A stretch of DNA of 64,000 bases from an uncultured Candidatus Saccharibacteria bacterium. GTDB taxonomy: Bacteria; Patescibacteriota; Minisyncoccia; JBAYJV01. The translations under genes were made by a program, and so were the position numbers. This document shows, piece after piece, positions 2,398-60,429 of the stretch. Every line of letters begins with the position of its first letter. Position 1 is the first letter of the stretch. Location: NCBI GenBank assembly GCA_964577395.1, contig CAZNYQ010000013.1:6409-70408 (forward strand), written 5' to 3'. Below the pieces are notes generated by a model that was not told the origin of the DNA, ran no database searches, and saw only the letters and a list, made by a program, of their open reading frames with translations.

Positions 2398-3918
2398 ATG
2401 AAAAATTTAAAAGAAAAAATTAATATTATCTTAGAAGATCTTTACCAAATTGACAGTTCTTTTAAAAATTATGAAAAAGACCTACGTCAATTAATTAAGA
2501 ATTTACTTGAGCTAAAGCCACAAGCAGAGTTAGATGAAGAGTTTAGGCAAGAACTTAAAGCTAAAATCCTCAATAGAATAGAAGAGCTTAAAGCAAAAAA
2601 ACAGACAAATCGAACCTCTTTCTTATCGAAATTACATTTAATTAGATTACCAGCTTATGCAGCATTGGGTGTTAGTGTTATTATTTTAGCTCTTCTTGTG
2701 GGGACGGTTTATTATAAAGGGCAATCGCTCTTTGAGGGAGAAAAGATTAGTCTTATAAAAGGAATTAAAATTAATCCTCTATCAAATAATAGAGCTTTTG
2801 GCTCTTTAGAAGATAGTGACTCTCAAACATTAAAACAACAAGAAGAAGCTGCAGAAATGAATGCTCCTCAAGGATTAGGAACAGGACCGGGAAGTTTAGC
2901 TGATAAGCCGGTTGAGGTTGAAATTGCACCTTATAGGCCGATAGATTATAAGTATGTGTATGAAGGAGAGCTTAATTTAGATGGGGATTATGTGAAGGTA
3001 TTACAACGTTCGATTGAGAATAATCTAGGGAGCTTTAATAACATTATTAATCGTTTTAATCTAGGATTAATGGACCTTAATAAGTTTTCTGATATTAGCT
3101 TTAAGACAATTCGTTTAGAAGAAGATAGTGAAGCTGGGTATAATGTTTCTATCAATCTGGATCAGGGCATGATTTCAATTTATAAGAATTGGTCCAATTG
3201 GCCAACTGTACAAGAAAGTAGCGAAGTTATTAGTAAAGATATTTCTCAATCAAAGCCTGCTTTTAATTCTGGCAATATCCCTAATGATAGTACTTTAGTT
3301 GATATTGCTAACCATTTTTGTAAAAGATATAAGATTGATTTAACTCCTTATGGAGAGCCGGAAGTTTATCAAGAAAGAGAATTTTTGATTCAAAAAGAAG
3401 CTGAAGCAGAGAATTTTATTCTTGCCCCTAGTAATATAAGGCTTATTTATCCACTTCTTATTGGAGGAAAGAGAGTTTATACAACGAGTGGTGAAGTTTT
3501 TGGCTTAGATATTTCAATAGATATTGCCAAGAAGAAAGTTAGTGGATTATATAATCTAACAGTTCATCAATATAATGAGTCTAATTATGACATGGCTTCA
3601 GAAAAAGATGTGTTAAGTTATTTAGAAGAAGGAGCAACACAAGGTCATGTTTATTATAGAGACGATCAACGTAAAAAAGTAACAGTTAAATTAGAAGAAC
3701 CTACTATGGGTTATGTAAAATATTGGCAACATAGTAAAAATAGGGGAGAGATGCCACAAGAAATTCTTGTGCCAGCTTTAATATTCTCAATTCAAGAAAA
3801 ACCAGCAGATGCTGTCTATAATTTTCGAGATAAGATTGTTGTACCTCTTGCTAAAGATCTCATTGAAAATATTAACAGTAAACCAATACCTGTTCCTATG
3901 ATTGACATAGAGGAATAA
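2398..3918 (+). CDS. membrane-anchored protein, putative anti-sigma factor (large extracytoplasmic domain)
   Basis: Starts 3 nt after the sigma-factor stop. It has a ~90-aa cytoplasmic N-terminus, a single TM helix (AYAALGVSVIILALLVGTVYY) and a ~400-aa extracytoplasmic domain. This is the usual ECF sigma/anti-sigma arrangement, but no zinc-finger anti-sigma motif is visible. Confidence 0.4.
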   Translation: MKNLKEKINIILEDLYQIDSSFKNYEKDLRQLIKNLLELKPQAELDEEFRQELKAKILNRIEELKAKKQTNRTSFLSKLHLIRLPAYAALGVSVIILALLVGTVYYKGQSLFEGEKISLIKGIKINPLSNNRAFGSLEDSDSQTLKQQEEAAEMNAPQGLGTGPGSLADKPVEVEIAPYRPIDYKYVYEGELNLDGDYVKVLQRSIENNLGSFNNIINRFNLGLMDLNKFSDISFKTIRLEEDSEAGYNVSINLDQGMISIYKNWSNWPTVQESSEVISKDISQSKPAFNSGNIPNDSTLVDIANHFCKRYKIDLTPYGEPEVYQEREFLIQKEAEAENFILAPSNIRLIYPLLIGGKRVYTTSGEVFGLDISIDIAKKKVSGLYNLTVHQYNESNYDMASEKDVLSYLEEGATQGHVYYRDDQRKKVTVKLEEPTMGYVKYWQHSKNRGEMPQEILVPALIFSIQEKPADAVYNFRDKIVVPLAKDLIENINSKPIPVPMIDIEE

Positions 3919-3978
3919 TCTTGACTGAAGGTTGTTTTGATGGATATAATAAAATTATCTTAATTAAGAAGTTAAAAT

Positions 3979-4209
3979 ATGAAAAAAGAAATAGCTAAAT
4001 TGAACAGAGTAGCTGGTCAAATTAAGGGTTTGGCAAGGATGATTGAAGAAGAAAAGAATTGTGATAAAATCATTATTCAGTTTCAAGCCACTAAGGGTGC
4101 TTTGAATAGTATCTTTAGTAATTATCTTAACGATAATTTAACTGAATGCATGAGAGAGAATAAGCCAGAACAATTAAAAGAAATTATTAAGCAAATTAGT
4201 AAAAAATAG
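3979..4209 (+). CDS. CsoR/RcnR/FrmR-family (DUF156) small transcriptional repressor, two-Cys variant
   Basis: 76-aa ORF. LNRVAGQIKGLARMIEEEKNCDKIIIQFQATKGALNSIFSNYLNDNLTECM matches the CsoR-family helix pattern, with Cys in the x-C-x-D position and a second Cys. The His of the Cu-sensing C-H-C triad is replaced by Asn. Confidence 0.55.
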   Translation: MKKEIAKLNRVAGQIKGLARMIEEEKNCDKIIIQFQATKGALNSIFSNYLNDNLTECMRENKPEQLKEIIKQISKK

Positions 4210-4216
4210 CAAGATA

Positions 4217-4253
4217 AAAAAACAAAAAGTTAAAAACATCTTTTTGTTTTTTT
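4217..4253 (+). terminator. AU-rich hairpin plus T-tract, weak intrinsic terminator after the CsoR-like gene
   Basis: aaaaacaaaaag / ctttttgttttt inverted repeat followed by a run of T. Confidence 0.35.
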
Positions 4254-4309
4254 AATTAAAATTTAATTTTAATTAAAATGAAAACAGCTACTAGTATAAA
4301 AAACTAAAC

Positions 4310-4318
4310 TTATCCACA
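4310..4318 (+). promoter_or_regulatory. perfect DnaA box (TTATCCACA) in the nrdJ upstream region
   Basis: Exact 9-mer consensus lying ~130 nt upstream of the nrdJ start. DnaA control of nrd genes is established in E. coli. Identical boxes occur at 34737 and 47313. Confidence 0.4.
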
Positions 4319-4446
4319 GATTTTGGAGCTTTGACTATCTTTATCCTTAGAGTATGATAAGAAAATGATGCTCCCAAAACTTACTCTTGTTTTTTTGAGT
4401 AAGTCTTCATTTGTTAAGTAAGTAAAATATTAGTTAATAAGTTTTT

Positions 4447-6732
4447 ATGGGTAAGATTAAAAAAGTTAAAAAAAGAGATGGTCGTATAGTAAAATTCGAT
4501 CAAGTGAAAATTACCAATGCGATTTATAAAGCAATGCAAGTTAGTCAAGAAGGTGATTTGTCTAAACATCCTTACCGAGTTAGTGAAAAAGTTGTTAAAA
4601 TCTTGCAACAAAAACTAAAAGCTAAGGCTATTCCGGATATAGAAAAGATTCAAGATATTGTTGAAGAAGTTTTAATCTTAATGGATTTTTCTAAAACAGC
4701 CAAAGCTTATATTCTTTATCGTCAAGAGAGAGCTCGCATTAGAGAACAGAAAAAAATAATTCCTCGAGATGTTAAAAAATTAGTCCAAGAAAGTAAAAAA
4801 TATTTTAATGATCCTTTTAGAGAATTTATTTATTATCGAAGTTATTCTCGTTGGTTGGAAGACAAGGGTCGTCGGGAAACTTGGGTTGAGACGATTGATA
4901 GATACGTAAAATTTATGAGGGAAAAGCTGGGGGATAAGCTTAGTGAAAAGGAATATAAAGATATTAAAAAAGCAATTCTTTATCAAGAAGCTATGCCATC
5001 AATGCGGCTTATCTGGGCGGCTGGTAAGGCAGTTAAGGCAAGTAATGTTACTGCATATAATTGTTCCTATATCGCTCCCACTAAATTAACCGATTTTGCT
5101 GAGATGATGTATATCTTAATGTGTGGTGGAGGACTAGGTTTTTCGGTTGAGAGTCGTTTTGCTCAACAACTTCCTTTGATTAAATCGCAGACTGGTAAAA
5201 AATTGGCAACCTATGTTGTCAAGGACAGTAAAGAAGGTTGGGGCAATGCTTTAACAAAAGGATTAAAAACTTGGTATGGTGGCAAAGATATTGATTTTGA
5301 TTACTCACAGTTAAGACCTGCAGGTGCTAGACTTTACACAATGGGAGGCAGAAGTTCCGGCCCTGAACCCTTAAGAGCTTTATTTAATTTTGCAAGAAGC
5401 AAAATTCTAGCAAATCAAGGTAAGCGTTTACGTAATATTGATGTTCATGATATTATTTGTAAAATTGGTGAGCTTGTTGTGATGGGGGGTGTAAGGAGAA
5501 GCGCCCTAATATCATTATCTGATTTGGATGATGAAAAAGTTCGCAATGCAAAAACAGGTGAATTTTACATCAGCAATCCACAACGTTCTATGGCTAATAA
5601 TTCCGCTGTTTATAATAGAAAGCCGAGTAGCCAACAATTTTTAGAAGAATGGTTGGGACTTATGAAGAGCGGTTCAGGAGAGAGAGGTATTTTTAACAGA
5701 GGAAGTCTCAAAGACCAATTACCGGCAAGACGCTGGAAAAGCTTTAAAAAACATTGGGATGCTTCAGGCATTAATCCCTGTGGAGAAATTATTCTAAGGT
5801 CAAAATCATTTTGTAATTTAACTGAAGTAGTAGCACGTCCCCAAGATACCGAGAAAAAGCTTTTAGATAAAATTACTATTGCAACAATTTTAGGAACTTT
5901 TCAAGCAATGCTCACTGATTTTCATTACATTTCCAATGATTGGAAGAAAAATGGTGAAGAAGAAAGATTACTTGGTGTTTCTATTACCGGACAATGGGAT
6001 TGTCCGGTGGTGCGCAAGAAAGAAGTCTTAGCAAAACTTAAGGCAAAAGCTTTAAAAATTAATCGTAAGTATGCTAAGAGATTTAAAATCAAACCCTCTC
6101 TAGGTGTTACTTCTGTTAAGCCGTCAGGGACAGTATCTCAACTTGTGAATAGTTCTTCAGGCATGCATCCCCGTTATGCTAAATATTACATCAGGAGAGT
6201 GAGGGTTTCTGCAAACGATCCTTTATTCAAAATGTTAAAAGACCAAAAATTTCCTTATCATCCAGAAGTAGGCCAATCAGAAGAATCAGCTACTTCATAT
6301 GTGCTTGAATTCCCTTTAAGTTCTCCTAAGGATGCTATTACCCGCAATGATCTTAGTGCTATAGAGCAGTTAGAGCATTGGAAGAAGGTTAAAACAACTT
6401 ATACAGAACATAATCCTTCCCAAACTATTTTAGTAGGAGAAGGAGAATGGATAGAAGCAGCTGATTGGGTATATGATAATTGGAATATTGTTGGAGGATT
6501 GAGTTTTTTACCGCGTGATGATCATATATATAAATTACCTCCTTACGAGGAAATTAGTAAAGAAAAGTATGACGAATTAGTTTCTCAAATGCCAGATATT
6601 GATTTCTCTCAAATCATTGCCTATGAAAAAGATGATCAAACGACTGGTGCGAAGATGCCTGCTTGCGAAAGTCCTGTTTGCGAATTAAAACCTAGCCTAA
6701 AAGAGCCTAAAAATCAAAAATCAGAGGATTAA
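4447..6732 (+). CDS. nrdJ: class II adenosylcobalamin-dependent ribonucleotide reductase (monomeric RTPR-like) with N-terminal ATP-cone
   Basis: ATP-cone-like N-terminus KKRDGRIVKFDQVKITNAIYKA. Active-site NPCGEI...CNLTEV motif. C-terminal Cys pair CESPVCE with C-x4-C spacing, like the thioredoxin-reduced C-terminal pair of L. leichmannii RTPR. A cobalamin adenosyltransferase gene lies immediately downstream. Confidence 0.8.
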   Translation: MGKIKKVKKRDGRIVKFDQVKITNAIYKAMQVSQEGDLSKHPYRVSEKVVKILQQKLKAKAIPDIEKIQDIVEEVLILMDFSKTAKAYILYRQERARIREQKKIIPRDVKKLVQESKKYFNDPFREFIYYRSYSRWLEDKGRRETWVETIDRYVKFMREKLGDKLSEKEYKDIKKAILYQEAMPSMRLIWAAGKAVKASNVTAYNCSYIAPTKLTDFAEMMYILMCGGGLGFSVESRFAQQLPLIKSQTGKKLATYVVKDSKEGWGNALTKGLKTWYGGKDIDFDYSQLRPAGARLYTMGGRSSGPEPLRALFNFARSKILANQGKRLRNIDVHDIICKIGELVVMGGVRRSALISLSDLDDEKVRNAKTGEFYISNPQRSMANNSAVYNRKPSSQQFLEEWLGLMKSGSGERGIFNRGSLKDQLPARRWKSFKKHWDASGINPCGEIILRSKSFCNLTEVVARPQDTEKKLLDKITIATILGTFQAMLTDFHYISNDWKKNGEEERLLGVSITGQWDCPVVRKKEVLAKLKAKALKINRKYAKRFKIKPSLGVTSVKPSGTVSQLVNSSSGMHPRYAKYYIRRVRVSANDPLFKMLKDQKFPYHPEVGQSEESATSYVLEFPLSSPKDAITRNDLSAIEQLEHWKKVKTTYTEHNPSQTILVGEGEWIEAADWVYDNWNIVGGLSFLPRDDHIYKLPPYEEISKEKYDELVSQMPDIDFSQIIAYEKDDQTTGAKMPACESPVCELKPSLKEPKNQKSED

Positions 6733-6749
6733 TATATCATATATATAAC

Positions 6750-7295
6750 ATGATTTATGTTTTTACCGGTAATGGAAAAGGAAAAACATCTGCTGCTCTT
6801 GGTGCTGGATTAAGAATGATTGGAGCAGGTAAGAAAGTTTTTTTAGTGCAGTTTTTAAAAGCTAGTATTTCTTCAGAGAATTGGGCTATTAAAAAAATAG
6901 AGAATTTTGAGATTAGAAGCTTTGGGAGACAAGGCTTTTTTCTTCCTCAAAAAACAATTGAAAAATATCCCAAGCTTAAAGAAAAAGGGGTTAAATCTTT
7001 TGATAAGCAAGACATTAAGTTAGCCAAAGAAGCTCTAGCTTGTGCTAAAAAAAATAGCCATGATTATGATCTACTTATCCTAGATGAAGTTAATATAGCA
7101 ATTCATTTTAAGCTGATTCAGGTATCGGAGTTACTGAAATTTCTAGAGAGAACAAAAAAACATTGTCATATTATTTTAACAGGCAGGCAGTGCCCCCAAG
7201 AAATTATTGAAAAAGCTGACCTAGTAACTGATTTCCAGGAAGTGAAGCATTACTACCAAAAAAATATATCTGCCATTCGAGGTATTGATTTTTAA
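6750..7295 (+). CDS. cobO: cob(I)alamin/cob(I)yrinic acid a,c-diamide adenosyltransferase (CobO/BtuR family)
   Basis: VFTGNGKGKTSAALGAG P-loop, LILDEVN, TGRQCPQEIIEKADLVTDFQEVKHYY and AIRGIDF at the C-terminus all line up with E. coli BtuR. Confidence 0.85.
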   Translation: MIYVFTGNGKGKTSAALGAGLRMIGAGKKVFLVQFLKASISSENWAIKKIENFEIRSFGRQGFFLPQKTIEKYPKLKEKGVKSFDKQDIKLAKEALACAKKNSHDYDLLILDEVNIAIHFKLIQVSELLKFLERTKKHCHIILTGRQCPQEIIEKADLVTDFQEVKHYYQKNISAIRGIDF

Positions 7296-7311
7296 TTTTT
7301 AACTAAAATTT

Positions 7312-7761
7312 ATGTTCAAAAAAAAGACTCTTTTTCCTAGCTTGCTTCTTGTTTTACTGCTTCTAGTTTTAGGGTGGGTTATTATTGATAGAAATTATTC
7401 AAATGTTGAGAAAGAAGATGTTGAACAACCGGGCACGCAAGGGGAAGTTTCTACAGAAATTAGTTTAATTTTAAATTTTGGTAGTGAAGCAAAACTTCAA
7501 ACACAATCTATTAAAATAGAGAATGACTGGACAGCTTTTGATGCGCTTAAAAAAGCTTTAGAGAGATTAGACATTGAATTAGCTACCAAGAAATATGAAC
7601 AAGGTATTTTTATTGAAGCAATTGGAGAGAAAAAAAATGGTGATGATAATAAATATTGGCTTTATTATGTTAATGGTAAAATGCCTGAAGTAAGTTGCAG
7701 CAAACAATTTATTAAACCTGGAGATAAAATAGAATTTAAATTTCAGACTTCGCCTTATTAA
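7312..7761 (+). CDS. DUF4430-like secreted protein, candidate corrinoid-binding (transcobalamin-like) protein
   Basis: N-terminal TM/signal segment. C-terminal KYWLYYVNGKMPEVSCSKQFIKPGDKIEFKF resembles the DUF4430 signature found next to B12 genes in Firmicutes. The placement between cobO and a membrane protein supports this. Confidence 0.5.
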   Translation: MFKKKTLFPSLLLVLLLLVLGWVIIDRNYSNVEKEDVEQPGTQGEVSTEISLILNFGSEAKLQTQSIKIENDWTAFDALKKALERLDIELATKKYEQGIFIEAIGEKKNGDDNKYWLYYVNGKMPEVSCSKQFIKPGDKIEFKFQTSPY

Positions 7762-7764
7762 TTT

Positions 7765-8331
7765 ATGAATTTAAACTTTTTAAAACAGGAAAAAAATCTT
7801 AAAATTATCCTTAGTTTATTTGTTATATTAATTGGTCTAATTTTAAGGCTCTTGCCTCATCCCCCTAACTTTACTCCTATTGGTGCCTTAGCATTATTTA
7901 GTTTTACCTATCTTTCGAGAAAATCATTTTTTTTGCCTGTTGTAATATTATTAATCTCTGATTTTTTGATTGGTTTTTATGATATTAAACTTATGGTAGC
8001 TGTTTATATCAGTTTTTTAATATGTTCTTTGATAGGAATCTTTATTAGAAGAGATAAAAAATGGTCTACAATCTTAGAAAGTTCTCTCTTGGCAAGCTTT
8101 GTCTTCTTTTTAATAACTAATTTTGCTGTTTGGATGTTTACTCCTTGGTATGCACAGTCTTTTCAAGGTCTAATAACTTGCTATACCATGGCACTTCCCT
8201 TTTTAAGAAATACTCTTCTAGGTAATATTTTTTATACTGGCCTACTATTTGGAATCTATGAATTAGCTTTAAGCTTTATTAATAGCAAAGAATCACTATA
8301 CTGTTTTAACTCCAATTCTTTTAAGAGATAA
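7765..8331 (+). CDS. small polytopic membrane protein, possible ECF-type S-component-like substrate capture protein (corrinoid?)
   Basis: 188 aa with 5-6 predicted TM helices. LLPHPPNFTPIGALALFSF is reminiscent of the ECF S-component N-terminus. The function is inferred only from the B12 gene context. Confidence 0.35.
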   Translation: MNLNFLKQEKNLKIILSLFVILIGLILRLLPHPPNFTPIGALALFSFTYLSRKSFFLPVVILLISDFLIGFYDIKLMVAVYISFLICSLIGIFIRRDKKWSTILESSLLASFVFFLITNFAVWMFTPWYAQSFQGLITCYTMALPFLRNTLLGNIFYTGLLFGIYELALSFINSKESLYCFNSNSFKR

Positions 8332-8352
8332 GTTAGCACTTAAAAAAGAGAG

Positions 8353-8380
8353 TTGACACTATCCCCCTAGGGGGTATAAT
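8353..8380 (+). promoter_or_regulatory. sigma-70-type promoter of trxA with a perfect 12-bp palindrome in the spacer
   Basis: TTGACA (8353-8358), 16-nt spacer, TATAAT (8375-8380). The spacer contains CCCCCTAGGGGG (8363-8374), a striking GC palindrome in an AT-rich genome and a possible operator. Confidence 0.5.
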
Positions 8381-8419
8381 AGAATTTGTTTATTTTTTAA
8401 TTTATGTATAAAAATCAAT

Positions 8420-8749
8420 ATGGCAAACCCAGCTCAAGTTAACGCTGATAACTTTGACAAAGAAGTTCTTCAGTCACCAATCCCTGTATTAGTAGATTTT
8501 TGGGCGCCTTGGTGTGGACCTTGTCTTATGATGGCTCCTGTTCTTGATGAATTGTCAGAAGAACTAGAAGGCAAACTGAAAATTGCTAAACTTAACACAG
8601 AAACTCAGGAAAACCAGACTATAGCAATAAAATATCAAATTAGGAGTATTCCTAATATGAAACTATTTAAAGACGGCAAGGTCGTTAAAGAATTTGTTGG
8701 AGCAAGACCAAAGGATGATTTTAAAACTGAACTAGAAAAAGAACTGTAA
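8420..8749 (+). CDS. trxA: thioredoxin
   Basis: WCGPC active site, 109 aa, thioredoxin fold order. Confidence 0.9.
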   Translation: MANPAQVNADNFDKEVLQSPIPVLVDFWAPWCGPCLMMAPVLDELSEELEGKLKIAKLNTETQENQTIAIKYQIRSIPNMKLFKDGKVVKEFVGARPKDDFKTELEKEL

Positions 8750-8764
8750 TTATTTTTTTAAATT

Positions 8765-9997
8765 ATGAAAACGAGTATCTTTTCCAATATTATTAAAAGA
8801 TTGGAAGAAATTCAAAAGATAGAAAGTTTAGAAGATAAAGCTATTAAATTGCTTTCGTCTCCTAAAAAAATTAATTATAAAAAACTAACAGTAAAAAATC
8901 ATAAAATCCCAGCTTGGCGTATTGTGTTTAATGATGCTTTAGGTCCGGGCAAGGGAGGTATTAGATTTCATCCAGATGTCAGCGAAGATGAAGTAAAATC
9001 TCTATCATTCTGGATGATGATTAAAAATTCTTTAGCTGAGCTTCCCTATGGAGGAGCTAAGGGGGGTGTAAAATTTAATCCTAAAGAATTTTCCTTTCAA
9101 GAAATTGAAGAAATAAGCCGAGCATTTATTGATGCTTTTTATGAAAACCTTGGACAAGATAAGGATATTCCAGCCCCAGACGTTTATACAAATCCTCAAG
9201 TGATGGCTTGGATGCTTGATGAGTATGAAAAAATAACAAAACACCACGAGCCAGGTATGATAACTGGTAAACCTCTAGAATTAGGTGGTTGTCAATTAAG
9301 GGGAGATGCAACTGCTAGAGGAGGATTTATTATTGTTCAAGAAGTCATCAAAAAATTTAAATTAAATAAAAAAACTTTAAGAATAGCGATCCAGGGATTT
9401 GGAAACGCTGGATTTTACCTTTCTCAAATGCTAAGTCAGAATAATATTAAAATAGTTGCAGTTAGTGATAGTAAAGGCGGTATTTATAATGATAAAGGAT
9501 TGAATATTAATGAAGTAAGATCAACTAAAGATAAAGAAGGAAATGTTAGTAAATATCCAAAGGGAAAGCAGATCACCAATGAAAAATTACTTGAATTGCC
9601 AGTTGATATACTTATCTTAGCAGCGCTTGAAAATCAGATTACCGAAAGAAATGCAAATAATATTCAGGCTAAATATATTATAGAGATCGCCAATGGACCA
9701 ATTAATTATGAGGCGGATAAGTTATTATTTAAAAAACAAACAATTGTTATTCCTGATATTTTAGCTAATTCAGGTGGAGTAATTGGTAGCTATTTTGAAT
9801 GGGCTCAGAATAGAACAGGTCATGTATTAGATAAAGAATACCTAATAAAGCTCTTAGTTAAGAAAATGACTAATTCTTGGCATGATATGAACGAAGTTTA
9901 TGAAAATCAACACAGGAAAATTAATTTGAGAACTGCTGCTTACATCTTAGCTATTAGGAGAATTTTAGCGGCCGAGAAATTACGAGGTAATTTATAG
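8765..9997 (+). CDS. Glu/Leu/Phe/Val dehydrogenase family (glutamate dehydrogenase-like)
   Basis: PYGGAKGGVKF catalytic Lys motif and GFGNAGFY dinucleotide-binding motif. 410 aa. Confidence 0.85.
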   Translation: MKTSIFSNIIKRLEEIQKIESLEDKAIKLLSSPKKINYKKLTVKNHKIPAWRIVFNDALGPGKGGIRFHPDVSEDEVKSLSFWMMIKNSLAELPYGGAKGGVKFNPKEFSFQEIEEISRAFIDAFYENLGQDKDIPAPDVYTNPQVMAWMLDEYEKITKHHEPGMITGKPLELGGCQLRGDATARGGFIIVQEVIKKFKLNKKTLRIAIQGFGNAGFYLSQMLSQNNIKIVAVSDSKGGIYNDKGLNINEVRSTKDKEGNVSKYPKGKQITNEKLLELPVDILILAALENQITERNANNIQAKYIIEIANGPINYEADKLLFKKQTIVIPDILANSGGVIGSYFEWAQNRTGHVLDKEYLIKLLVKKMTNSWHDMNEVYENQHRKINLRTAAYILAIRRILAAEKLRGNL

Positions 9998-10085
9998 AAA
10001 GTTTTTAAAGTGAAAATTTTACTTATTATGAATGATAGCATGTAGAATTTTCACTTTTATTCATTAAACTAGTAAAAATTTAACT

Positions 10086-11027
10086 ATGCACAACATTGAA
10101 CAAGAATATCCTTTAGTTATTATAGGTACTGGTCCAGCTGGCTTAACGGCTTCAATTTATGCTTCTCGATATAAGATTAAACATTTATTAATTGGAGAAG
10201 TTTTAGGGGGGCTGGCCTTTGAAGCGCATAAAATCTGTAATTATCCTAGCGAACAAGAGATTAGAGGATCTCAATTAGTAAATAAAATAAAAGCTAATGC
10301 TGAAAATCTAGGGATGAATATATTAAATGATAAAGTTATTTCTATTACTAAGGAAGATAAGCATCAAGGATTCACAATTAACACACAGGGGAAAAAGAAT
10401 ATCTTAGCTCGTAATATTCTTTTAGCTACAGGCACTAAACATCGTAAATTAAATCTTCCTAGAGAAAAAGAATTTTTAGGTCATGGGATTTCTTATTGTG
10501 CTACATGTGATGCCATGTTTTATAGAGACAGAGAGGTAGTAGTTATTGGCGGAAGTGATAGCGCTAATACTGCTTCTTTATACTTAGCTGAAGTAGCAAA
10601 GAAAGTTTATCAAGTTTATCGTCGTGATAAACTTAGAGGAGACCCTACTTGGGTTAAACAAGTTATGGAAAATGAAAATATTGAGGTTATCTTTAATAAT
10701 CAAATAATAGCACTAGAAGGTAATAATGATTTAGAAAGTGTGGTTTTGGAAAAACCATATAGAGGTAACAATAAGTTAAATATTGATGGTTTCTTTATTG
10801 AAATTGGTACAGTGCCCCAGCAAGATATAATTAAAATATTAGCGCTAGCTACTGATAAAAAAGGCTACATTAAGATTAACGGAGAACAAAAGACCAGTCA
10901 GGCAAATATTTGGGCTGCCGGAGATATCACGAATGGATCAAATAATTTTCGCCAAATTATTACTGCTTGTAGTGAAGCAGCTATTGCCGTAGAAAATATT
11001 TTTACTACCCTGCAACGAGAAAAATAG
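10086..11027 (+). CDS. trxB: thioredoxin-disulfide reductase
   Basis: N-terminal GTGPAG FAD motif, redox-active CATCDA, second GGSDSA NADPH motif. 313 aa. Confidence 0.85.
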   Translation: MHNIEQEYPLVIIGTGPAGLTASIYASRYKIKHLLIGEVLGGLAFEAHKICNYPSEQEIRGSQLVNKIKANAENLGMNILNDKVISITKEDKHQGFTINTQGKKNILARNILLATGTKHRKLNLPREKEFLGHGISYCATCDAMFYRDREVVVIGGSDSANTASLYLAEVAKKVYQVYRRDKLRGDPTWVKQVMENENIEVIFNNQIIALEGNNDLESVVLEKPYRGNNKLNIDGFFIEIGTVPQQDIIKILALATDKKGYIKINGEQKTSQANIWAAGDITNGSNNFRQIITACSEAAIAVENIFTTLQREK

Positions 11028-11050
11028 AAAAAATAAAAAAAGATATTACT

Positions 11051-11080
11051 AAAAAAGCCCCTGAAATAGAGGGCTTTTTT
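11051..11080. terminator. bidirectional intrinsic terminator between trxB (+) and hup (-)
   Basis: aaaaaGCCCctgaaatagaGGGCttttt, a stem flanked by A- and T-tracts. Confidence 0.6.
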
Positions 11081-11132
11081 AGGTATGTTCCAAAGGAACA
11101 TTAAGAGGTTGTTTTTGACATTGAAACTGTTC

Positions 11133-11405
11133 TTATTTGACAGCTTCTTTAAGACCTTTACCAGCTTTAAATTTAGGAACAGTTGCAGCAGGAATTTGAA
11201 TAGTAGCACCAGTTTGTGGATTACGGCCGGTGCGAGCTTTTCTCTTGTAAGTTTTGAAGGTGCCAAAGCCTGTGAAAGTAATGCTATCACCTTGCTTAAG
11301 GGCACCAGTAATAGATTCTAAAATAGCATCAATGCATTTTTTTGTTTGGGTCTTAGGAAGACCGGCTTTAGCCGCAACTTTGTCAATAAGAGCTTGTTTA
11401 GTCAT
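11133..11405 (-). CDS. hup: DNA-binding protein HU
   Basis: MTKQALIDKVAAKAGL...GFGTFKTYKRKARTGRNPQTG matches the HU/IHF family arm. Confidence 0.9.
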   Translation of the reverse strand: MTKQALIDKVAAKAGLPKTQTKKCIDAILESITGALKQGDSITFTGFGTFKTYKRKARTGRNPQTGATIQIPAATVPKFKAGKGLKEAVK

Positions 11406-11467
11406 TTAGTTCACCCCCTTTCATAGGTTTCCTGACAAAGCCAGGAATGTTATAAATAATTAGTTAG

Positions 11468-12988
11468 TTATTTAGCGTATTCAATAGCACGTGTTTCCCG
11501 AATGACATTTACTTTAATTTCTCCGGGATAAGTCATGTTTTCTTCAATTTTATTAGCTATTTTTCGTGCCAATTTGTAAGCATCAAGATCGCTAATCTGT
11601 TCGGTGTCTACAAAAACACGAATTTCTCTGCCAGCTTGAATAGCGTAGGTCTTTTTCACGCCATCAAAGGTATTGCTGAGATTTTCTAATTCCTCTAAAC
11701 GTTTAATATAAGCTTCGTAATTTTCTCTTCTTACACCAGGACGAGATGCTGATAAAGCATCAGCTACTTGAACAAGACGTGATTCTAGGTTAACGAAAGG
11801 ATAATCTTCATGATGGGCGATTACAGCATCAATAACATCTTTATTAATATTGAATTTTTCAAGAATTTTTTTACCAATCTCAACATGTGAACCTTCAACT
11901 TCGTGACTGACTGCCTTGCCTATGTCGTGTAATAATCCTGCTTTTTTTGCAACAGTTACATCTCCACCAAGTTCTTCAGCTAGGATTGCAGCCATATGAG
12001 CAACTTCAAGAGAATGGCGTAATATATTTTGACCGAAGCTAGTTCTAAAATGGAGCATGCCAATCAAGTTAACTAGTTGAGGGTCAAATTCGGTAATACC
12101 TAATTCATAGACAGCATCTTCACCTAGTTGGTGGATTTTTTCAGAGAATTCTTTTTTAACTTTTTCCACCGTTTCTTCAATACGAGCTGGTTGAATGCGA
12201 CCGTCCATGATTAGTCTTTCAAGAACAACTTTTGCAATGTGGCGTCTGAGAGGATTAAAGGAAGATATAACAACCGCATCAGGCGTTTCATCAATAATTA
12301 ATTCTACTCCCGTAGCTTTTTGAAAAGCACGAATATTTCTACCCTCTTTTCCAATGATGCGTCCTTTGAGATCTTCATCCTTTAAGGTAACTGTGGTAGT
12401 GGTAAATTCTTCCGCTTGAGAAGCAGCAATTCTTTGCATTGCCTGAGCAATCATATCAGCAGCTTTATTGTTAATTTCTTCTTGCTTATTTTTCTCAAGT
12501 TTTTTAGTAAGATCTAATAGATCTTCCTGAGACTCTTTTTCAACAATTTTTAAGAGTCTTTCCCTTGCTTTTTTAGGTGTTAATTTAGCAGTTTCTTGAA
12601 GCTTTTTTTGAACGTTTTCCTGTAATTCTTTAACATTCTTTTGAATGTCTTTGATCTTAGTAACTTTTTCTAAGAGTTGTTTCTTTTGTTCTTCAACAGC
12701 AGTAATTTGTTTTTCAATTCTTTCTTCCCTTAAAACCAGTCTTTCTTCCTGCCTGTTGAGTTGTTGTTGTCTTTCTTTTTCTTCTTGCTTAGCTTTTTCT
12801 AGAGTATTCAAGGCTTTGTCTTTTGCCTTGAGAATTACTTGCTGAGCTTCATTTTTAGCATTTTTGATTAGTTCATTAGCGCGTTTTTCGCTAGAACCGA
12901 TTTTACGTTGAGCTATCCAATGACGGAATAAGTAACCTGCTAAAATTCCTAGCACAACCGTCATAACAATGAAATAGTAGCTTTCCAT
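11468..12988 (-). CDS. rny: ribonuclease Y
   Basis: N-terminal TM helix, coiled-coil, KH domain (GKEGRNIRAFQKATGVELII) and HD domain (HDIGK). 506 aa. Confidence 0.9.
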   Translation of the reverse strand: MESYYFIVMTVVLGILAGYLFRHWIAQRKIGSSEKRANELIKNAKNEAQQVILKAKDKALNTLEKAKQEEKERQQQLNRQEERLVLREERIEKQITAVEEQKKQLLEKVTKIKDIQKNVKELQENVQKKLQETAKLTPKKARERLLKIVEKESQEDLLDLTKKLEKNKQEEINNKAADMIAQAMQRIAASQAEEFTTTTVTLKDEDLKGRIIGKEGRNIRAFQKATGVELIIDETPDAVVISSFNPLRRHIAKVVLERLIMDGRIQPARIEETVEKVKKEFSEKIHQLGEDAVYELGITEFDPQLVNLIGMLHFRTSFGQNILRHSLEVAHMAAILAEELGGDVTVAKKAGLLHDIGKAVSHEVEGSHVEIGKKILEKFNINKDVIDAVIAHHEDYPFVNLESRLVQVADALSASRPGVRRENYEAYIKRLEELENLSNTFDGVKKTYAIQAGREIRVFVDTEQISDLDAYKLARKIANKIEENMTYPGEIKVNVIRETRAIEYAK

Positions 12989-28107: not shown

Positions 28108-28181
28108 GCCCCTGTAGCTCAAATGGATAGAGCAACTCCCTTCTAAGGAGTAGGTTGCACGTTCGAGTCGTGCCAGGGGCG
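28108..28181 (+). tRNA. tRNA-Arg (anticodon UCU)
   Basis: GCCCCTGTAGCTCAAATGGATAGAGC...; anticodon stem ACTCC/GGAGT, loop CTTCTAA. Confidence 0.85.
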
Positions 28182-28189
28182 TTTCAAAA

Positions 28190-28262
28190 GGGTGCGTAGC
28201 TCAATCGGTAGAGCAGGGGCCTCTTAAGCCCAAGGTTGGGGGTTCGATTCCCTTCGCACCCA
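28190..28262 (+). tRNA. tRNA-Lys (anticodon CUU)
   Basis: GGGTGCGTAGCTCAATCGGTAGAGC...; anticodon loop CTCTTAA; T-arm GGGGG-TTCGATT-CCCTT. Confidence 0.85.
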
Positions 28263-28288
28263 TAGAATATATAGTATATATGTATCAA

Positions 28289-28321
28289 AAAAGATTTATG
28301 GATAACATAAATCTTTTTTAT
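28289..28321. terminator. bidirectional hairpin terminator between the tRNA pair (+) and the xer-like recombinase (-)
   Basis: aaaaaagatttat-ggataac-ataaatctttttt. Confidence 0.5.
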
Positions 28322-28329
28322 TAAAAAAA

Positions 28330-29274
28330 TTATTTCTTTTTATGATGATATTGTTCGTGAATTTTTTTTAGATTTTGATCAGTAATGTGAGTATAAATTT
28401 GAGTAGTAGATACATTAGCGTGTCCTAAAAGAGCCTGAACAGAGCGGAGGTCAGCACCTCCCGCTAAAAGATCTGTTGCGAACGAGTGTCTTAATGTATG
28501 TGGAGTAATTTTTTTAGTAATGCCAGCAGCTGTTGACCATTTTCTAACGATTCTTTGGATCGATCTCGGAGTAAGTCGGAGGTTATCGCTACCTCCTATT
28601 TTTTTAATTCTAACGAATAATGCCAAGTCAACATCTTTGCGTTTATTAAGATATGTTTTTAAGGCAGCCTTAGCATTATCTGATAAAAATACTACCCTTA
28701 CTTTTCCGCCCTTGCCTTTAATGCTTAATTCGCAAGTTTCAAAGTTAATTTTCTCTCTATCTAATTTACATAATTCAGATACTCGCAAGCCTGTGCTAAA
28801 AAGCATTTCTAAAATTGCTTTGTCCCTTAAACAGCTTAAATCAGTTTTTTTGCTCTTAAGAGGTGCTTTTAATAATCTTTCGATCTCTTGACTATTAAGT
28901 ATCTCAATTTCTTTCTCTGTTTTTTTAGCAAGTTCAATTTTATCTGGTGATAGACTTTTAATATCTTGTTTAATTAAATAGCGCAGAAAGTTTCTTAGTG
29001 CAATTAAATGATAATTTTGGGTAACACGCTTTAAAGTATTATTATTTAGACGATTAAGATAGAGACGATATTGCCTAATAAGTTCTTGGTCTATTTCTTG
29101 AGGATTTTTAATATTTGCCCAGGTTAAAAAACGTTCTAAATAACGCTTATAATTCTCAAGAGTTTTTTTGCTAGCTCCTTTTTCAATTTCTAAATATTCA
29201 AAATATCTCTGCGCTATATTTCTAATGGGGGGTTTGGTATTTTGTTGATTCATAATAATTTTATTATACGACAT
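28330..29274 (-). CDS. tyrosine site-specific recombinase XerC/XerD-like
   Basis: C-terminal catalytic region HTLRHSFATDLLAGGADLRSVQALLGHANVSTTQIYTHI and an N-terminal SAM-like domain. 314 aa. Confidence 0.85.
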   Translation of the reverse strand: MSYNKIIMNQQNTKPPIRNIAQRYFEYLEIEKGASKKTLENYKRYLERFLTWANIKNPQEIDQELIRQYRLYLNRLNNNTLKRVTQNYHLIALRNFLRYLIKQDIKSLSPDKIELAKKTEKEIEILNSQEIERLLKAPLKSKKTDLSCLRDKAILEMLFSTGLRVSELCKLDREKINFETCELSIKGKGGKVRVVFLSDNAKAALKTYLNKRKDVDLALFVRIKKIGGSDNLRLTPRSIQRIVRKWSTAAGITKKITPHTLRHSFATDLLAGGADLRSVQALLGHANVSTTQIYTHITDQNLKKIHEQYHHKKK

Positions 29275-44272: not shown

Positions 44273-47254
44273 TTAAGGGACGTTAATATTTTTAGTGACT
44301 TTTTGGGTAACTGTTGGCCAGTGAAAGTTTAAAATATCAATATTTAGAATGAAACGGCATTTAGCATAAACTGATTTGGATCCGCCACTTGAAAATGTAT
44401 GATTTAAACCGCCTGGCTTTGATGCTGGATAGAGGGACTCTTTCTCTGAGCCATCCTTCCAATCAATTTTATTACTAGTAGGCATATCTAATCTTAATTT
44501 TGTTCCTCGATAAGCGATCGGGCCGATTTTAAAATAAATACCTTTGATAATTGGTTCTCCTAAAATACTGATATATATATTAGGAACACTACAGATGCCT
44601 ATAGAAGCAGGTTTAATATTCTCATCATATATCTTTACAGTATGAGGGGATGAATCTACGGCTTGAGCGTTAAGATTTCCCACACTACAATCTTCCCAAT
44701 TATTGCCATTTAATAAAGTACATACAGCTGATACGAGATCGGTAGGACAAGCAAAATTACCGCTTATATCAACCTCAATAACCAACTTCTTAATAATATT
44801 CATTAAATCAAGATGAATAATATCTTGAGCTAGATGCTGGTTTACGACAATTTTAAAGAAACGATGCAATATATCGTAGCGAATACCTGTTAATTTTTCT
44901 CCTTTCTTAGCTGCGAATTCAATAATTAGTTCTTCAACCCTATCTAAAGCATAGCTTTGTAATTCCTCAAAAGAAATATTTTTGGTTTCACTTAAAAATC
45001 TTGCAAAACTAGCTATTTCTGCTACTAATTCCGGATCTATACCTAAAGTTTCTTGTATGTAGGGAGCTAAAACATCTTGAACAATTCTTGTTATTATTTG
45101 TTTTCCACGAGAGATCAGGTAGGATTCAAAAGAGCTAATAAACTGATTTACATCAAACTCTAGAAAGATATTTAGGTCTTTGCCTTGCGCATTAATAGTA
45201 TAGTTGATGAAGTCTAGAACATATTTTGCTAATTCTGGACTGATTTTAAAATTTTCCTCTAAAACAGTTGTGATTTTAACGCTTAGAAAGTCAACCGCTT
45301 CTTCGATGAATTGTTGGCTATCAACATCTATGTCAATTCCTGCCTCGTCGAGCAGAATACTAATGCCATGACTTTCAATCTCAATAGATAGGTCTGATAT
45401 GTCGTAACCTTTGTCAAAAAGAAGAAATTTAATAAACTGAATTGTTTTTTCGATAATTCTGCTGTCAACTGCTTTTTGCACGAGCTCGCCGTCTATTTCT
45501 ACATCTATTTCTATGATGTCTAATAATTTATTAGCTGTTTGAGCTGCAAGGTCATAAGCGACGCTCCTTATAATGTCAAGGCCTTTTTGAAGAGTAATCC
45601 CGTGAGCTTGAACGTAGCTTTTCCAAAGTTCTTCTAGGCTAGATTTATTTTTTTGAATAATTTCTTGCAAACTTAGTCCTTTATTCTGGATCAAGAATTT
45701 TATAAAATTCTTGATATCATTTATTTGTTGATCATTTAAATTATATTCATCCTTAAGCTTTTGTATCTCTGTGGCAGCAAGAGAAGTCAGGGCTTCAATA
45801 ATTTGCTGTTGACTCGCTTCGCTCTCAAGATTTAATCCAGCTGATATTAAGTTTATTAATTTTTGAGCTTTTAGGATTTTTTTAATTAAAGGCGAGGAAT
45901 GTTGCTTGACATAACCATTCCACAATAGGTCAAACCATGCTTCTACATCAGAAGAGTCAGGGAGAGAGCCTCTTTCTATGCCTTGTTCGGCAAGAAAAGC
46001 AATAAAATTACCAATTTCTTGAGCTGTCCCTGTCTCAATATTAAGTTCAATTGCAAATTTTATAATAAATTCTTTAATAACTTGGGGAGCGACTTCTTTA
46101 ATTCCGTTAATGCCTGCGTTAACAAATTTATCAATGTTATCAGTAAAAAATTCGGGATCATTAATAGCTTGAATTGGATCTATTCCTTGAGATTGAAGCC
46201 AAAAATAAAAGTCAGCTAGAGCTTGCATATTTTTAGCTATATCTTCTCCAAAAAGGCCCACTATGACTTCACCGGTAAATTCTTCTGCAAAACCAGCGAG
46301 AAGATTACTTAACATTGAAGCAGTAATATTACACAAATCCCAACGTAAAGCATCTTTTTGTTCTTCACTCTCTGGAGCTTTTTTCCATCCTTCTTTTTCA
46401 GTACAAATATATTGAGGATCTGTAGGGTTATAATCACTTGGAGCTATATCTTCATGTACATTACCGCATTGCCATTCATAGTAGCCAGCATTATTTTTCT
46501 GACAGGTGGCTTCATCATAATAGCGACAATAAATTCCTTCTTCTTTTTCAATGACACGGGCTTCATCGCATGTATCTGAAGGCGCTCCTTGAGATAAGTA
46601 ACAATTAAAAGAGCTATCAACGTTTATTAAATCTTCTAAAAGATTATCAAAACTAATAATTGGTTCTGTGATATGGCAATCACTCTCAACTTTTACCCAA
46701 TAACCCTTAAAAGCTTCAAGATTTGCCCTAGGAGAAGTGAGATGATAATCATTACCAGAAGCTTCAAATAACCAATCAATTTTTAAATTACAGTTTCCCT
46801 TCAATTGTGCCCAGTTATAATTAGCGGTAGAGGCTATTAAATTCCATCCCGCTTCCAATTCTGTACTAAAGCCTCCTTCAGGAGGCATCTCTGCTTCACC
46901 CGAAGACCCAACCTCTAATTCACAATCATTAATTACCCTTACCCAGTAAGCTTTTAATGGTTTTAGAGCATCTCCGGCTTTACGATATTTATATAAATTA
47001 GGACTCCATTCCCAAGGACCTGAATCAATTTCACAGCCAGCTAGATATTCTGAACTTAATATTTCATCAGATACAGAGATGAGATTCCATCCCTTTTTAA
47101 GAGATACATTGCCCTGAGGAGCAAGCTCCATTTCTATTCCAGCTTGAGCTTTCTTAGGACTTAAAAAAGATCCTAAATAGACAAAACCAGTTTGCGTTAA
47201 AGTAAATGTTATAAGGACTATTGTAATTATTGTTTTTTTAAAAAACTTCTTCAT
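44273..47254 (-). CDS. very large (993 aa) signal-anchored surface protein with internal repeats, function unknown
   Basis: Signal/TM MKKFFKKTIITIVLITFTLT...AQA. Two tandem ~65-aa N-terminal repeats (GWNLIS...LKPLKAYWVRVINDCE / GWNLIA...LEAFKGYWVKVESDCH). The helical middle region carries recurring F-x-x-FL-x-x-KG-x-x-(F/L)-(E/Q)-E-(L/I) units. Confidence 0.6.
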   Translation of the reverse strand: MKKFFKKTIITIVLITFTLTQTGFVYLGSFLSPKKAQAGIEMELAPQGNVSLKKGWNLISVSDEILSSEYLAGCEIDSGPWEWSPNLYKYRKAGDALKPLKAYWVRVINDCELEVGSSGEAEMPPEGGFSTELEAGWNLIASTANYNWAQLKGNCNLKIDWLFEASGNDYHLTSPRANLEAFKGYWVKVESDCHITEPIISFDNLLEDLINVDSSFNCYLSQGAPSDTCDEARVIEKEEGIYCRYYDEATCQKNNAGYYEWQCGNVHEDIAPSDYNPTDPQYICTEKEGWKKAPESEEQKDALRWDLCNITASMLSNLLAGFAEEFTGEVIVGLFGEDIAKNMQALADFYFWLQSQGIDPIQAINDPEFFTDNIDKFVNAGINGIKEVAPQVIKEFIIKFAIELNIETGTAQEIGNFIAFLAEQGIERGSLPDSSDVEAWFDLLWNGYVKQHSSPLIKKILKAQKLINLISAGLNLESEASQQQIIEALTSLAATEIQKLKDEYNLNDQQINDIKNFIKFLIQNKGLSLQEIIQKNKSSLEELWKSYVQAHGITLQKGLDIIRSVAYDLAAQTANKLLDIIEIDVEIDGELVQKAVDSRIIEKTIQFIKFLLFDKGYDISDLSIEIESHGISILLDEAGIDIDVDSQQFIEEAVDFLSVKITTVLEENFKISPELAKYVLDFINYTINAQGKDLNIFLEFDVNQFISSFESYLISRGKQIITRIVQDVLAPYIQETLGIDPELVAEIASFARFLSETKNISFEELQSYALDRVEELIIEFAAKKGEKLTGIRYDILHRFFKIVVNQHLAQDIIHLDLMNIIKKLVIEVDISGNFACPTDLVSAVCTLLNGNNWEDCSVGNLNAQAVDSSPHTVKIYDENIKPASIGICSVPNIYISILGEPIIKGIYFKIGPIAYRGTKLRLDMPTSNKIDWKDGSEKESLYPASKPGGLNHTFSSGGSKSVYAKCRFILNIDILNFHWPTVTQKVTKNINVP

Positions 47255-49081: not shown

Positions 49082-49786
49082 ATGTCTCGTGTTAAAAAAT
49101 ATATTTTGGGTTTATTGATTCTTGTCATTATTTTTGTAATTTCAGTTGTTGTTTTTGTAGAAAGAGATCAAGAAGGTAAGCTTAAATTTTCTCTTACAGG
49201 CAGCCAAACTAATATTATTTCAGATAATTTTAATGAGGTTATTCAACAAGAACTTACCCTAGATGATATAAATTGGTCTGATGCATATAATAAAGTGCTT
49301 AAACAGAAATATTCTAAAGATAACTTAAATCAAAAAGAGATTGAAATTTCTAGCGGTGCCTCTAAAATTTCTGAAGAAGAAGCTGAGATGGATGAAGATA
49401 ATAAAGAAATAATTTTTCAAAAGTTCGTTAATTATTTAAATAATTCAGAGACAAAACTTGATGAAAATAAGAATCCCTTTCAATTAGCTTTAAATTACCG
49501 AGACGAGGGAAGACCAGAGAAAATTGATGGTTTAATATCTTTTTATGATTCAAAGGTCACTAGTCTTGAGAAAGTAACGCCTCCAGAAGAAGTTTTAGGA
49601 TATCACTTGGTCAAATTAAGACTTTTAAGAGAAATTAAGCTTGCAGTCAGTAAAATTAAAACTTCTTCTCAGGAAATGCCCCTTAAAGAAGTTTTATCCG
49701 AAGAGGAGATTAATTATTTGGCGAGACTTGATTTAATTTTAAAACAATATTTAGTATATTTTTTCCATGACAGAACAAAGGCTTAA
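49082..49786 (+). CDS. hypothetical N-terminally anchored protein
   Basis: Start lies 2 nt after the upstream stop. One N-terminal TM helix and no recognisable motif. Confidence 0.4.
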   Translation: MSRVKKYILGLLILVIIFVISVVVFVERDQEGKLKFSLTGSQTNIISDNFNEVIQQELTLDDINWSDAYNKVLKQKYSKDNLNQKEIEISSGASKISEEEAEMDEDNKEIIFQKFVNYLNNSETKLDENKNPFQLALNYRDEGRPEKIDGLISFYDSKVTSLEKVTPPEEVLGYHLVKLRLLREIKLAVSKIKTSSQEMPLKEVLSEEEINYLARLDLILKQYLVYFFHDRTKA

Positions 49787-56085: not shown

Positions 56086-56113
56086 TTAAGTAATAAAATT
56101 TATATTTATCCTC

Positions 56114-56977: not shown

Positions 56978-56980
56978 ACT

Positions 56981-57391
56981 ATGAGATATCAATTACCTCA
57001 ATTTATTGAAATGGAAGATAAGCTTATAGGACCGCTTACATTAAGGCAGTTCTTATATTTAATTGCTGTGCCGATAATTTGTTATCTTCTGCATTTTTTT
57101 GTTCGCTTGCCGTATGTTATCATGGTAGGAGTTATATTTTTTCCCATAGCTTTATTGCTTGCTTTTTATAGAATTAACGGTAGACCTTTTACTCATGCTT
57201 TTTTGGGATTGTTAAGATTCGTTAAGAAACCTCAAATGTATGTTTGGGAGAGGAGCATGCATAGAGTAAGTCAAGAAGAAGGTGTAGAAAAAACAACTGA
57301 CGATGAAAAGCAAAAAAATTCTGTGGAAAATAAGAAAAAGAAGAAAGACTTTAAAAAATTAGCCCAAGCCCTTGATCAAGGTAATACTTAA
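56981..57391 (+). CDS. PrgI-family / VirB3-like small membrane protein
   Basis: MRYQLPQFIEMEDKLIGPLTLRQFLYLIAVPIICYLL... followed by a second TM helix. This matches the PrgI pattern of Gram-positive T4SS, and it is encoded immediately before the VirB4 genes, as PrgI is before PrgJ. Confidence 0.5.
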   Translation: MRYQLPQFIEMEDKLIGPLTLRQFLYLIAVPIICYLLHFFVRLPYVIMVGVIFFPIALLLAFYRINGRPFTHAFLGLLRFVKKPQMYVWERSMHRVSQEEGVEKTTDDEKQKNSVENKKKKKDFKKLAQALDQGNT

Positions 57392-57411
57392 AATACTTGT
57401 TTTAAAATATA

Positions 57412-58062: not shown

Positions 58063-58067
58063 TTTTT

Positions 58068-60071: not shown

Positions 60072-60090
60072 TATGTATCGTTAAACTTTT

Positions 60091-60414: not shown

Positions 60415-60429
60415 TTATATATATAAAAT

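Follow-up and report, generated by a model that had tools for sequence, protein, structure and literature searches.

Candidate DUF4430/DUF6580 proteins for vitamin B12 capture and uptake beside an adenosylcobalamin-dependent ribonucleotide reductase in a Patescibacteria lineage

The window analysed here is a stretch of 64,000 nucleotides (nt) of contig CAZNYQ010000013.1 from an uncultured Candidatus Saccharibacteria bacterium. Its DNA is low in GC (~32%), and its proteins have their best matches in Nealsonbacteria, Parcubacteria and other Patescibacteria. Positions 3979-11027 contain eight head-to-tail open reading frames (ORFs), all on the + strand, in the order of a CsoR-like repressor gene, a class II ribonucleotide reductase (RNR) gene, a CobA/CobO/BtuR-type adenosyltransferase gene, the genes of a DUF4430 protein and a DUF6580 membrane protein, trxA, gdh and trxB (Table 1). 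The ORF boundaries agree with those of a first-pass annotation, which had been made from the sequence alone; the segment delimited there from 3979 takes in the CsoR-like gene, on which the text of that annotation is silent. The intergenic gaps from the RNR gene to the DUF6580 gene are 3-17 nt each, that between DUF4430 and DUF6580 being 3 nt, and the gaps preceding trxA and preceding trxB are 88 nt each. Positions 4447-8331 quite probably form one operon that combines an adenosylcobalamin-dependent RNR with a supply of its cofactor taken from outside the cell, and the DUF4430 and DUF6580 proteins most likely capture and import vitamin B12. Gene identities were obtained by scans with the hidden Markov models (HMMs) of Pfam and NCBIfam, and promoter-like sites by a scan for consensus patterns.

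Table 1. Features at and around positions 3979-11027 of the window
Feature	Coordinates	Strand	Evidence
CsoR/RcnR-family small repressor	3979..4209	+	PF02583 5e-20
Promoter-like site TTGACT-16-TATGAT, 5' of RNR gene	4331..4358	+	10/12 consensus, pattern match only
Class II RNR, RTPR-like, 761 aa	4447..6732	+	TIGR02505 1.2e-83; 1L1L 1e-41; RNR_Alpha PF17975 4.6e-11
ATP-cone, RNR residues 6-96	4462..4734	+	PF03477 3.3e-19, 69.6 bits vs cutoff 25.8
CobA/CobO/BtuR-type ATP:cob(I)alamin adenosyltransferase, 181 aa	6750..7295	+	PF02572 4.5e-52
CbrS-like DUF4430 protein, 149 aa	7312..7761	+	PF14478 3.1e-17
DUF6580 membrane protein, 188 aa	7765..8331	+	PF20221 6.2e-49
Sigma-70-type consensus TTGACA-16-TATAAT, gap before trxA	8353..8380	+	12/12, pattern match only
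Thioredoxin, WCGPC	8420..8749	+	TIGR01068 118.3 bits vs cutoff 96.8
Glu/Leu/Phe/Val dehydrogenase, GdhA-like, 410 aa	8765..9997	+	PF00208 1.2e-68; PF02812 3.8e-45
TrxB-like flavoprotein, CATC	10086..11027	+	TIGR01292 1.4e-85; PF07992 7.4e-44
GC-rich palindromic hairpin with A/T-run flanks, between convergent trxB and HU genes	11049..11082	.	Terminator-like site called on - strand

The RNR, adenosyltransferase and thioredoxin parts of the locus are standard. The RNR had been described at first pass as RTPR-like with an added ATP-cone, and this description is borne out by the closest solved relative of its body, Lactobacillus leichmannii RTPR (1L1L), which is matched in three stretches spanning residues 128-746, and by the Pfam match to the cone. 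The two enzymes are alike over the whole catalytic body, and the window motifs NPCGEI (thiyl-Cys), CNLTEV (CNL(F/T)EV between the two) and CESPVC, the C-terminal CxxxxC pair, align with those of RTPR. On the other hand, the window RNR differs by its low identity (~26%), by the N-terminal ATP-cone and by being shorter around the specificity-loop insertion. Its identity to L. helveticus RTPR is 26% over the full length, and its score against the RTPR equivalog TIGR02505 is 281.6 bits, below the cutoff of 340.05. Orthologues that are 59% identical and likewise have ATP-cones are found in two related loci, L043 and L075 (L-numbers are our labels for loci). From its family and the adjoining adenosyltransferase, the RNR is predicted to be monomeric and adenosylcobalamin-dependent. 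The adenosyltransferase, which had also been recognised beside the RNR at first pass, matches PF02572 with 177 bits and has the P-loop GNGKGKTS in its translation, while its match to TIGR00708 (2.8e-42, 144.5 bits) is under the equivalog cutoff of 167.75. The earlier statement that B12 biosynthesis genes are missing from the window holds for the called genes with a Pfam match, among which no cob/cbi gene was found in the window and its ~20 kb flanks (~84 kb), nor was an RNR of another class found in the same span. CPR (Candidate Phyla Radiation)/Patescibacteria are thought to live off other cells, and this locus shows how one CPR bacterium can keep a B12-dependent RNR without making B12.

The assignment of the first of the two small proteins to DUF4430 is confirmed by its HMM score (PF14478, 63.2 bits against a gathering cutoff of 23.8). 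The protein consists of a hydrophobic N-terminal helix (~residues 7-25), a low-confidence linker and a beta-grasp domain (residues 45-149), and in the AlphaFold2 (AF2) model the mean predicted local distance difference test score (pLDDT) exceeds 90 over residues 51-149. Single-sequence and profile searches of the Protein Data Bank (PDB) returned nothing useful, and matches were obtained by fold search alone. With Foldseek, the model matches 3U7Z, a DUF4430 structure from R. gnavus (E 4e-6, TMt 0.78), and the beta-domain of human transcobalamin (TC) in 5NO0 and 5NP4 (TMt 0.76-0.77, root-mean-square deviation (rmsd) 2.2-2.7 Å); it also superposes on the beta-domains of intrinsic factor and haptocorrin, with TMt of 0.76-0.78 and rmsd of 2.2-2.9 Å overall. 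The E-values for the set of 3U7Z, 5NO0, 5NP4, 2BB5, 2PMV and 4KKI range from 4e-6 to 2e-4, at a Foldseek probability of 1.00. The DUF4430 domain shares its beta-grasp fold, hairpin insert included, with the beta-domains of these three B12 carriers. In transcobalamin, however, an alpha/alpha-toroid completes the B12 pocket, whereas the window protein is a beta-domain only, on a membrane anchor. A transcobalamin-like SLBB clade has been defined, whose secreted bacterial members are predicted to be B12 scavengers in non-synthesising organisms (Burroughs et al., 2007, PMC1796856). The predicted extracytoplasmic location is common to these proteins and the window DUF4430 protein, although the former are partnered by CbiO/CbiQ genes and the latter by DUF6580. 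Solved structures yielded no bacterial DUF4430-only protein with B12 bound to it; the window protein is predicted to be an extracytoplasmic corrinoid binder.

The full transcobalamin architecture, an alpha/alpha-toroid plus DUF4430, is absent from the window and is encoded in many related operons by a protein of 450-980 aa. CPR operons under riboswitch control begin with such large secreted proteins, in which the toroid is prenyltransferase-like (L004 7229-9028; L019 7028-9577; L012 7417-8766). The toroid protein of L019 shows a weak match to eukaryotic Cobalamin_bind, and that of L012 has a dockerin.

The second small protein belongs to DUF6580, a large family (6,391 cluster representatives at 50% identity and E up to 1e-3), some members of which carry the NCBI name 'putative transport protein'. 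The AF2 model has six to seven helices (mean pLDDT 88.9), and its sole coherent fold matches in Foldseek are the S-components ThiT, RibU and PanT, with TM of 0.5-0.54 and weak E-values. A single-sequence search of the PDB with the window protein returned nothing useful, and a profile of 29 members gave a single match in the whole PDB, 6FNP_A (E 1.7e-4). This entry is ECF-CbrT, the vitamin B12 energy-coupling factor (ECF) transporter of L. delbrueckii (Santos et al., 2018, PMC5997447), and chain A is taken as CbrT because the 182-aa 'membrane protein' chain matches Pfam ECF_trnsprt (PF12822, 2.2e-8). Alignment of the DUF6580 profile to a CbrT-family alignment with hhalign gives an E-value of 6e-4 over 143 columns, and the motifs R..PN(F/V)xP after helix 1, (I/L)S(D/N)..(I/L)GF and GN..FY are common to the two families. 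Reciprocally, when a CbrT HMM is run against 876 ORFs from DUF6580 neighbourhoods, all of the top 60 matches are DUF6580 proteins, and two other DUF6580 members match PF12822 or PF07155 weakly (2e-3 to 3e-3). Across 147 diverse representatives, the polar residues R28, H32, N35, D66, N119 and Y129 are invariant, and no Cys is. On these profile comparisons, DUF6580 is a separate family related to CbrT, by a homology that is remote but specific, and the window protein is predicted to be a corrinoid translocator. The first-pass annotation had called for a comparison with ECF S-component and BtuM-like families: the protein is neither BtuM nor a member of PF12822, but a remote relation to CbrT can be traced.

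One protein among the 150 best DUF6580 representatives, P0213, has DUF6580 at residues 5-165 and DUF4430 at residues 255-329 of a single chain, with one more transmembrane helix in between, and its topology would place DUF4430 on the outside of the cell. In L055 and L075, seeming fusions of DUF4430 and DUF6580 were rejected as over-extended ORF starts, the two domains being in different frames.

A gene cluster with the same functions is known from lactobacilli. The cbrT gene of L. delbrueckii is part of an nrdJ-cbrS-cbrT-pduO cluster (Santos et al., 2018, PMC5997447), a system that had been predicted by Rodionov et al. (2009). In an L. helveticus locus (L081), the order is RTPR-type RNR, DUF4430, CbrT and PduO-type adenosyltransferase, with DUF4430 directly upstream of CbrT; this order matches nrdJ-cbrS-cbrT-pduO, and therefore CbrS is a DUF4430 protein. 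All four functions, namely an RTPR-type RNR, a DUF4430 protein, a small membrane protein of about six helices and an adenosyltransferase, recur in the window, in one cluster and in what would again be a B12 auxotroph. There are some differences between them. The window host belongs to a Patescibacteria lineage; CbrT is found in PF12822, whereas its window counterpart is found in PF20221 and is similar at the profile level only; the Lactobacillus adenosyltransferase is of the PduO type and follows the pair, whereas that of the window is of the CobA type and precedes it; and the ATP-cone is present on the window RNR. The system is a divergent version of this CbrS/CbrT B12-salvage cluster and not a new kind.

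BtuM of Thiobacillus denitrificans is another small B12 carrier that is S-component-like. The btuM gene co-localises with btuR, and metabolic trapping has been proposed for the two together; BtuM transports without an ECF module and couples decyanation chemistry to binding (Rempel et al., 2018, PMC6072759). As in its hosts, which are without an ECF module, the small carrier of the window is accompanied by an adjoining adenosyltransferase gene, and no ECF genes are nearby. In Gram-negatives, however, BtuM acts behind the outer-membrane receptor BtuB, and its axial ligand is a Cys, whereas DUF6580 has no invariant Cys and has a tethered binder as its partner. The PDB matches of DUF6580, by sequence or by fold, include no BtuM chain, and the likeness is functional only.

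The association of the two small proteins is widely conserved. A scan of one genome per species found 383 DUF6580 loci, of which 80 were kept for neighbourhood counts by clustering of neighbouring genes. By record label, 19 of these are from Bacteroidota and 61 from others, mostly Patescibacteria with one Nanoarchaeia, although some labels are unresolved or seemingly wrong. DUF4430 is found beside DUF6580 in 52 of the 61 non-Bacteroidota loci, nearly always directly upstream and on the same strand. The same 61 loci include a class II RNR in 17 cases (RTPR-like with an ATP-cone in L043 and L075, and of the NrdJ type in the rest), a CobA-type adenosyltransferase upstream of DUF4430/DUF6580 in 12, B12-binding radical S-adenosylmethionine (SAM) genes in 13 and NrdR in nine. 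In L043 and L075, a PduO-type adenosyltransferase (2/61; PF01923 1.9e-45) takes the position of the CobA-type enzyme, which is a non-homologous replacement. Likely B12 uptake genes are identified in this way across many CPR lineages, often with B12-dependent radical SAM genes nearby, and linking DUF6580 to cobalamin uptake gives this large family a testable function.

An Rfam riboswitch scan covered 50 of the loci, 39 non-Bacteroidota and 11 Bacteroidota. Cobalamin-clan riboswitches at the gathering score were found in seven of the 39 (L004, L012, L016, L025, L080, L019 and L069), on the same strand and directly 5' of the DUF4430...DUF6580 operon, and an eighth candidate, in L037, scores below the threshold. 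The aptamer core motif has ten matches in 1.27 Mb, and all ten sit upstream of DUF6580 on its strand. In L069 and L080, the order is NrdJ-CobO-[riboswitch]-DUF4430-DUF6580-Trx, which is essentially that of the window. Collectively, the transcobalamin beta-domain fold, the homology to CbrT, the Lactobacillus gene order, the conserved pairing, the riboswitches of relatives and the fusion protein support the corrinoid capture/uptake pair envisaged by the first-pass annotation, while its further phrase, a compact importer, assumes that no ECF module takes part.

The flanks of L001, L002, L004, L010, L012 and L016, which are Nealsonbacteria-like, contain genes for sugar epimerases and glycosyltransferases alongside multiple B12-binding radical SAM genes, as many as three in one locus. 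This arrangement hints at B12-dependent radical SAM chemistry in the synthesis of cell-surface glycans.

The following scheme, in which corrinoid binding, hand-over, transport direction, energy source and electron flow are what we infer, would account for the locus. The N-terminal helix of the DUF4430 protein would anchor it to the membrane on the outer side, where its transcobalamin-beta-like beta-grasp domain would bind a corrinoid. The corrinoid would be handed to the adjoining DUF6580 protein, predicted to be a six-helix carrier resembling an S-component, which would bring it through the membrane, presumably by toppling as S-components do. The CobA-type adenosyltransferase would then make adenosylcobalamin, thereby trapping the corrinoid in the cell, and the RTPR-like RNR would use it, with the ATP-cone providing on/off control by ATP/dATP. 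Thioredoxin, the predicted reductant of the C-terminal Cys pair of the RNR, would re-reduce this pair together with thioredoxin reductase. The gdh product may supply reduced nicotinamide cofactor and is a possible source of NAD(P)H for TrxB, so that electrons might pass from gdh via trxB and trxA to the RNR.

Our tentative proposal, a real possibility that we rate short of probable, is that DUF4430 and DUF6580 constitute a self-sufficient, ATP-independent B12 importer of two proteins: a tethered binder would deliver B12 to a lone S-component-like carrier, with adenosylation and binding to intracellular enzymes pulling uptake forward. CPR/Patescibacteria would then acquire B12 from hosts or communities mainly in this way. 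If true, a binding-protein-assisted facilitator on the S-component fold would be a transporter architecture that has not yet been described. Should the carrier prove independent of an ECF module, the precedent of BtuM for solitary S-components would be extended to a second, unrelated-looking family with an external binding partner.

Several points weigh against the reading of the locus as a B12-supplied RNR operon. CbrT gave no B12 uptake without its ECF module (PMC5997447), and heme uptake has been put forward as the role of a transcobalamin-like/ECF system in L. sakei (10.1101/864751). The homology between DUF6580 and CbrT is remote (hhalign probability 29%; Foldseek E of at least 0.4), PF20221 is the sole Pfam match of the window protein, which has none to PF12822, and a literature search found no mention of the DUF6580 family. 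A second literature search, on CPR and cobalamin uptake, likewise found nothing. The window shows no cobalamin riboswitch and no RNA element of another kind at the Rfam gathering score, and none is found in 3800-11500 even at E up to 5. The 237-nt leader of the RNR gene folds modestly better than its shuffles (z -2.6). Moreover, the 19 Bacteroidota loci (L040, L045-L048, L050, L052, L054, L056-L059, L062, L063, L066, L068, L070, L072 and L077) are without DUF4430, adenosyltransferase, RNR and B12 radical SAM genes, and the Rfam scan, which covered 11 of them, found no cobalamin riboswitch. Specificity may therefore differ within DUF6580, which may have more than one, and the B12 assignment is secure for the DUF4430-linked branch only. 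The neighbours of DUF6580 in Bacteroidota are entirely different and include DUF2784, DUF4920, a glycogen-branching-type enzyme and MutL.

As for the energy source, DUF6580 might be an ordinary group-II ECF S-component that docks on an EcfA-EcfA'-EcfT module encoded elsewhere, in which case B12 uptake would be driven by ATP as in ECF-CbrT. We consider this rather unlikely, if by no means far-fetched. The closest characterised relative, CbrT, requires the module (PMC5997447), the genes of group-II S-components are normally scattered away from it (Rodionov et al., 2009, as cited in PMC5997447), and bacterial transcobalamin-like proteins have been reported in operons with CbiO/CbiQ (PMC1796856). 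In contrast to ECF-CbrT, no ECF module is seen near DUF6580: an EcfA-sized ABC ATPase is encoded within 10 kb of it in none of the 80 loci (1.2 Mb), and neither an ECF module nor an ABC ATPase is encoded in the ~84 kb around the present locus. Five ABC-like ORFs occur in the 1.2 Mb of related loci, none of them beside DUF6580, and no window ORF has an ABC signature. The AxxxA pair in helix 1 of CbrT (A15/A19), which we take to be the EcfT-docking site, aligns with L18/L22 of the window DUF6580 in alignments read by eye, and the small residues that are conserved in DUF6580 sit at other positions. Both observations are still compatible with a distant module.

Two further explanations concern the function of the pair itself. 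It is improbable that DUF6580 is not a transporter and serves DUF4430 as a membrane dock or processing factor, e.g. in decyanation or corrinoid remodelling, while another protein transports: BtuM does join binding to decyanation chemistry (PMC6072759) and the invariant polar residues of DUF6580 could be catalytic, but its weak fold matches to S-components and its CbrT homology point to translocation, and the neighbourhoods have no second recurrent candidate for a membrane transporter. Least probable, and only just conceivable to us, is import of another ligand (heme, another tetrapyrrole or a metal) with an incidental place beside the RNR and adenosyltransferase genes, for which the proposed heme uptake in L. 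sakei, the suggestion that a different metabolite may be what archaeal SLBB proteins scavenge (Burroughs et al., PMC1796856) and the Bacteroidota genes without B12 context may be adduced, against seven cobalamin riboswitches directly upstream of the pair, recurrent neighbours that are all B12-dependent or B12-processing (class II RNR, two unrelated types of adenosyltransferase and B12-binding radical SAM proteins) and a nearest solved relative that is specifically a cobalamin S-component.

The first-pass annotation had treated the thioredoxin genes as part of one module with the RNR and B12 genes. Its calls of trxA, gdh and trxB are upheld, that of trxB by the CATC motif, which is present even though the match to TIGR01292 (286.7 bits) is under the cutoff of 343.45. 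The adjacency of a thioredoxin gene holds as well, and such a gene is found just 3' of DUF6580 in five to six other loci, e.g. L069 and L080. The idea of a single module is less well sustained. The perfect TTGACA-16-TATAAT is the best promoter-like match of the region and lies in the gap before trxA, and therefore the thioredoxin genes may be a second transcription unit. Judged by this site, trxA-gdh(-trxB) probably has its own transcription start, separate from the RNR/B12 operon. The gdh gene is beside DUF6580 in none of the 80 loci, and for this reason it was rejected as a conserved member of the system. The hairpin downstream of trxB is likely a bidirectional terminator, a palindrome that could also end the + strand unit.

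At the other end, the CsoR-like gene lies just upstream of the thiol-dependent RNR/thioredoxin region and is parted from the RNR gene by a hairpin and the 237-nt spacer. Its product shows a C28...N53...C57 pattern without a His at the metal-ligand position; with two Cys, this presumably resembles thiol/persulfide-sensing members such as CstR and not Cu or Ni/Co sensors. A CsoR-like gene adjoins DUF6580 in none of the 80 related loci, and in view of this lack of recurrence its membership of the system was rejected as unproven.

Elsewhere in the window, two very large ORFs without a Pfam match, 44273-47254 (993 aa) and 49767-52571 (934 aa), are found to the left of a type-IV-secretion-like block at 52624-61203, which encodes TrbL_3 (1153 aa), PrgI, a TraC-like protein, a VirB4/TraG-type ATPase and T4SS-pilin-like proteins. 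Further T4SS_pilin and TrbC genes are located to the left of the window (L083 18089-19382), and just left of it the GyrA gene is broken by an intein with a LAGLIDADG endonuclease domain (L083 11777-15523). A tyrosine integrase gene on the - strand (28330-29274) adjoins two tRNA genes (28108-28262), and the pair at 28108-29274 could be the remnant of an integration site.

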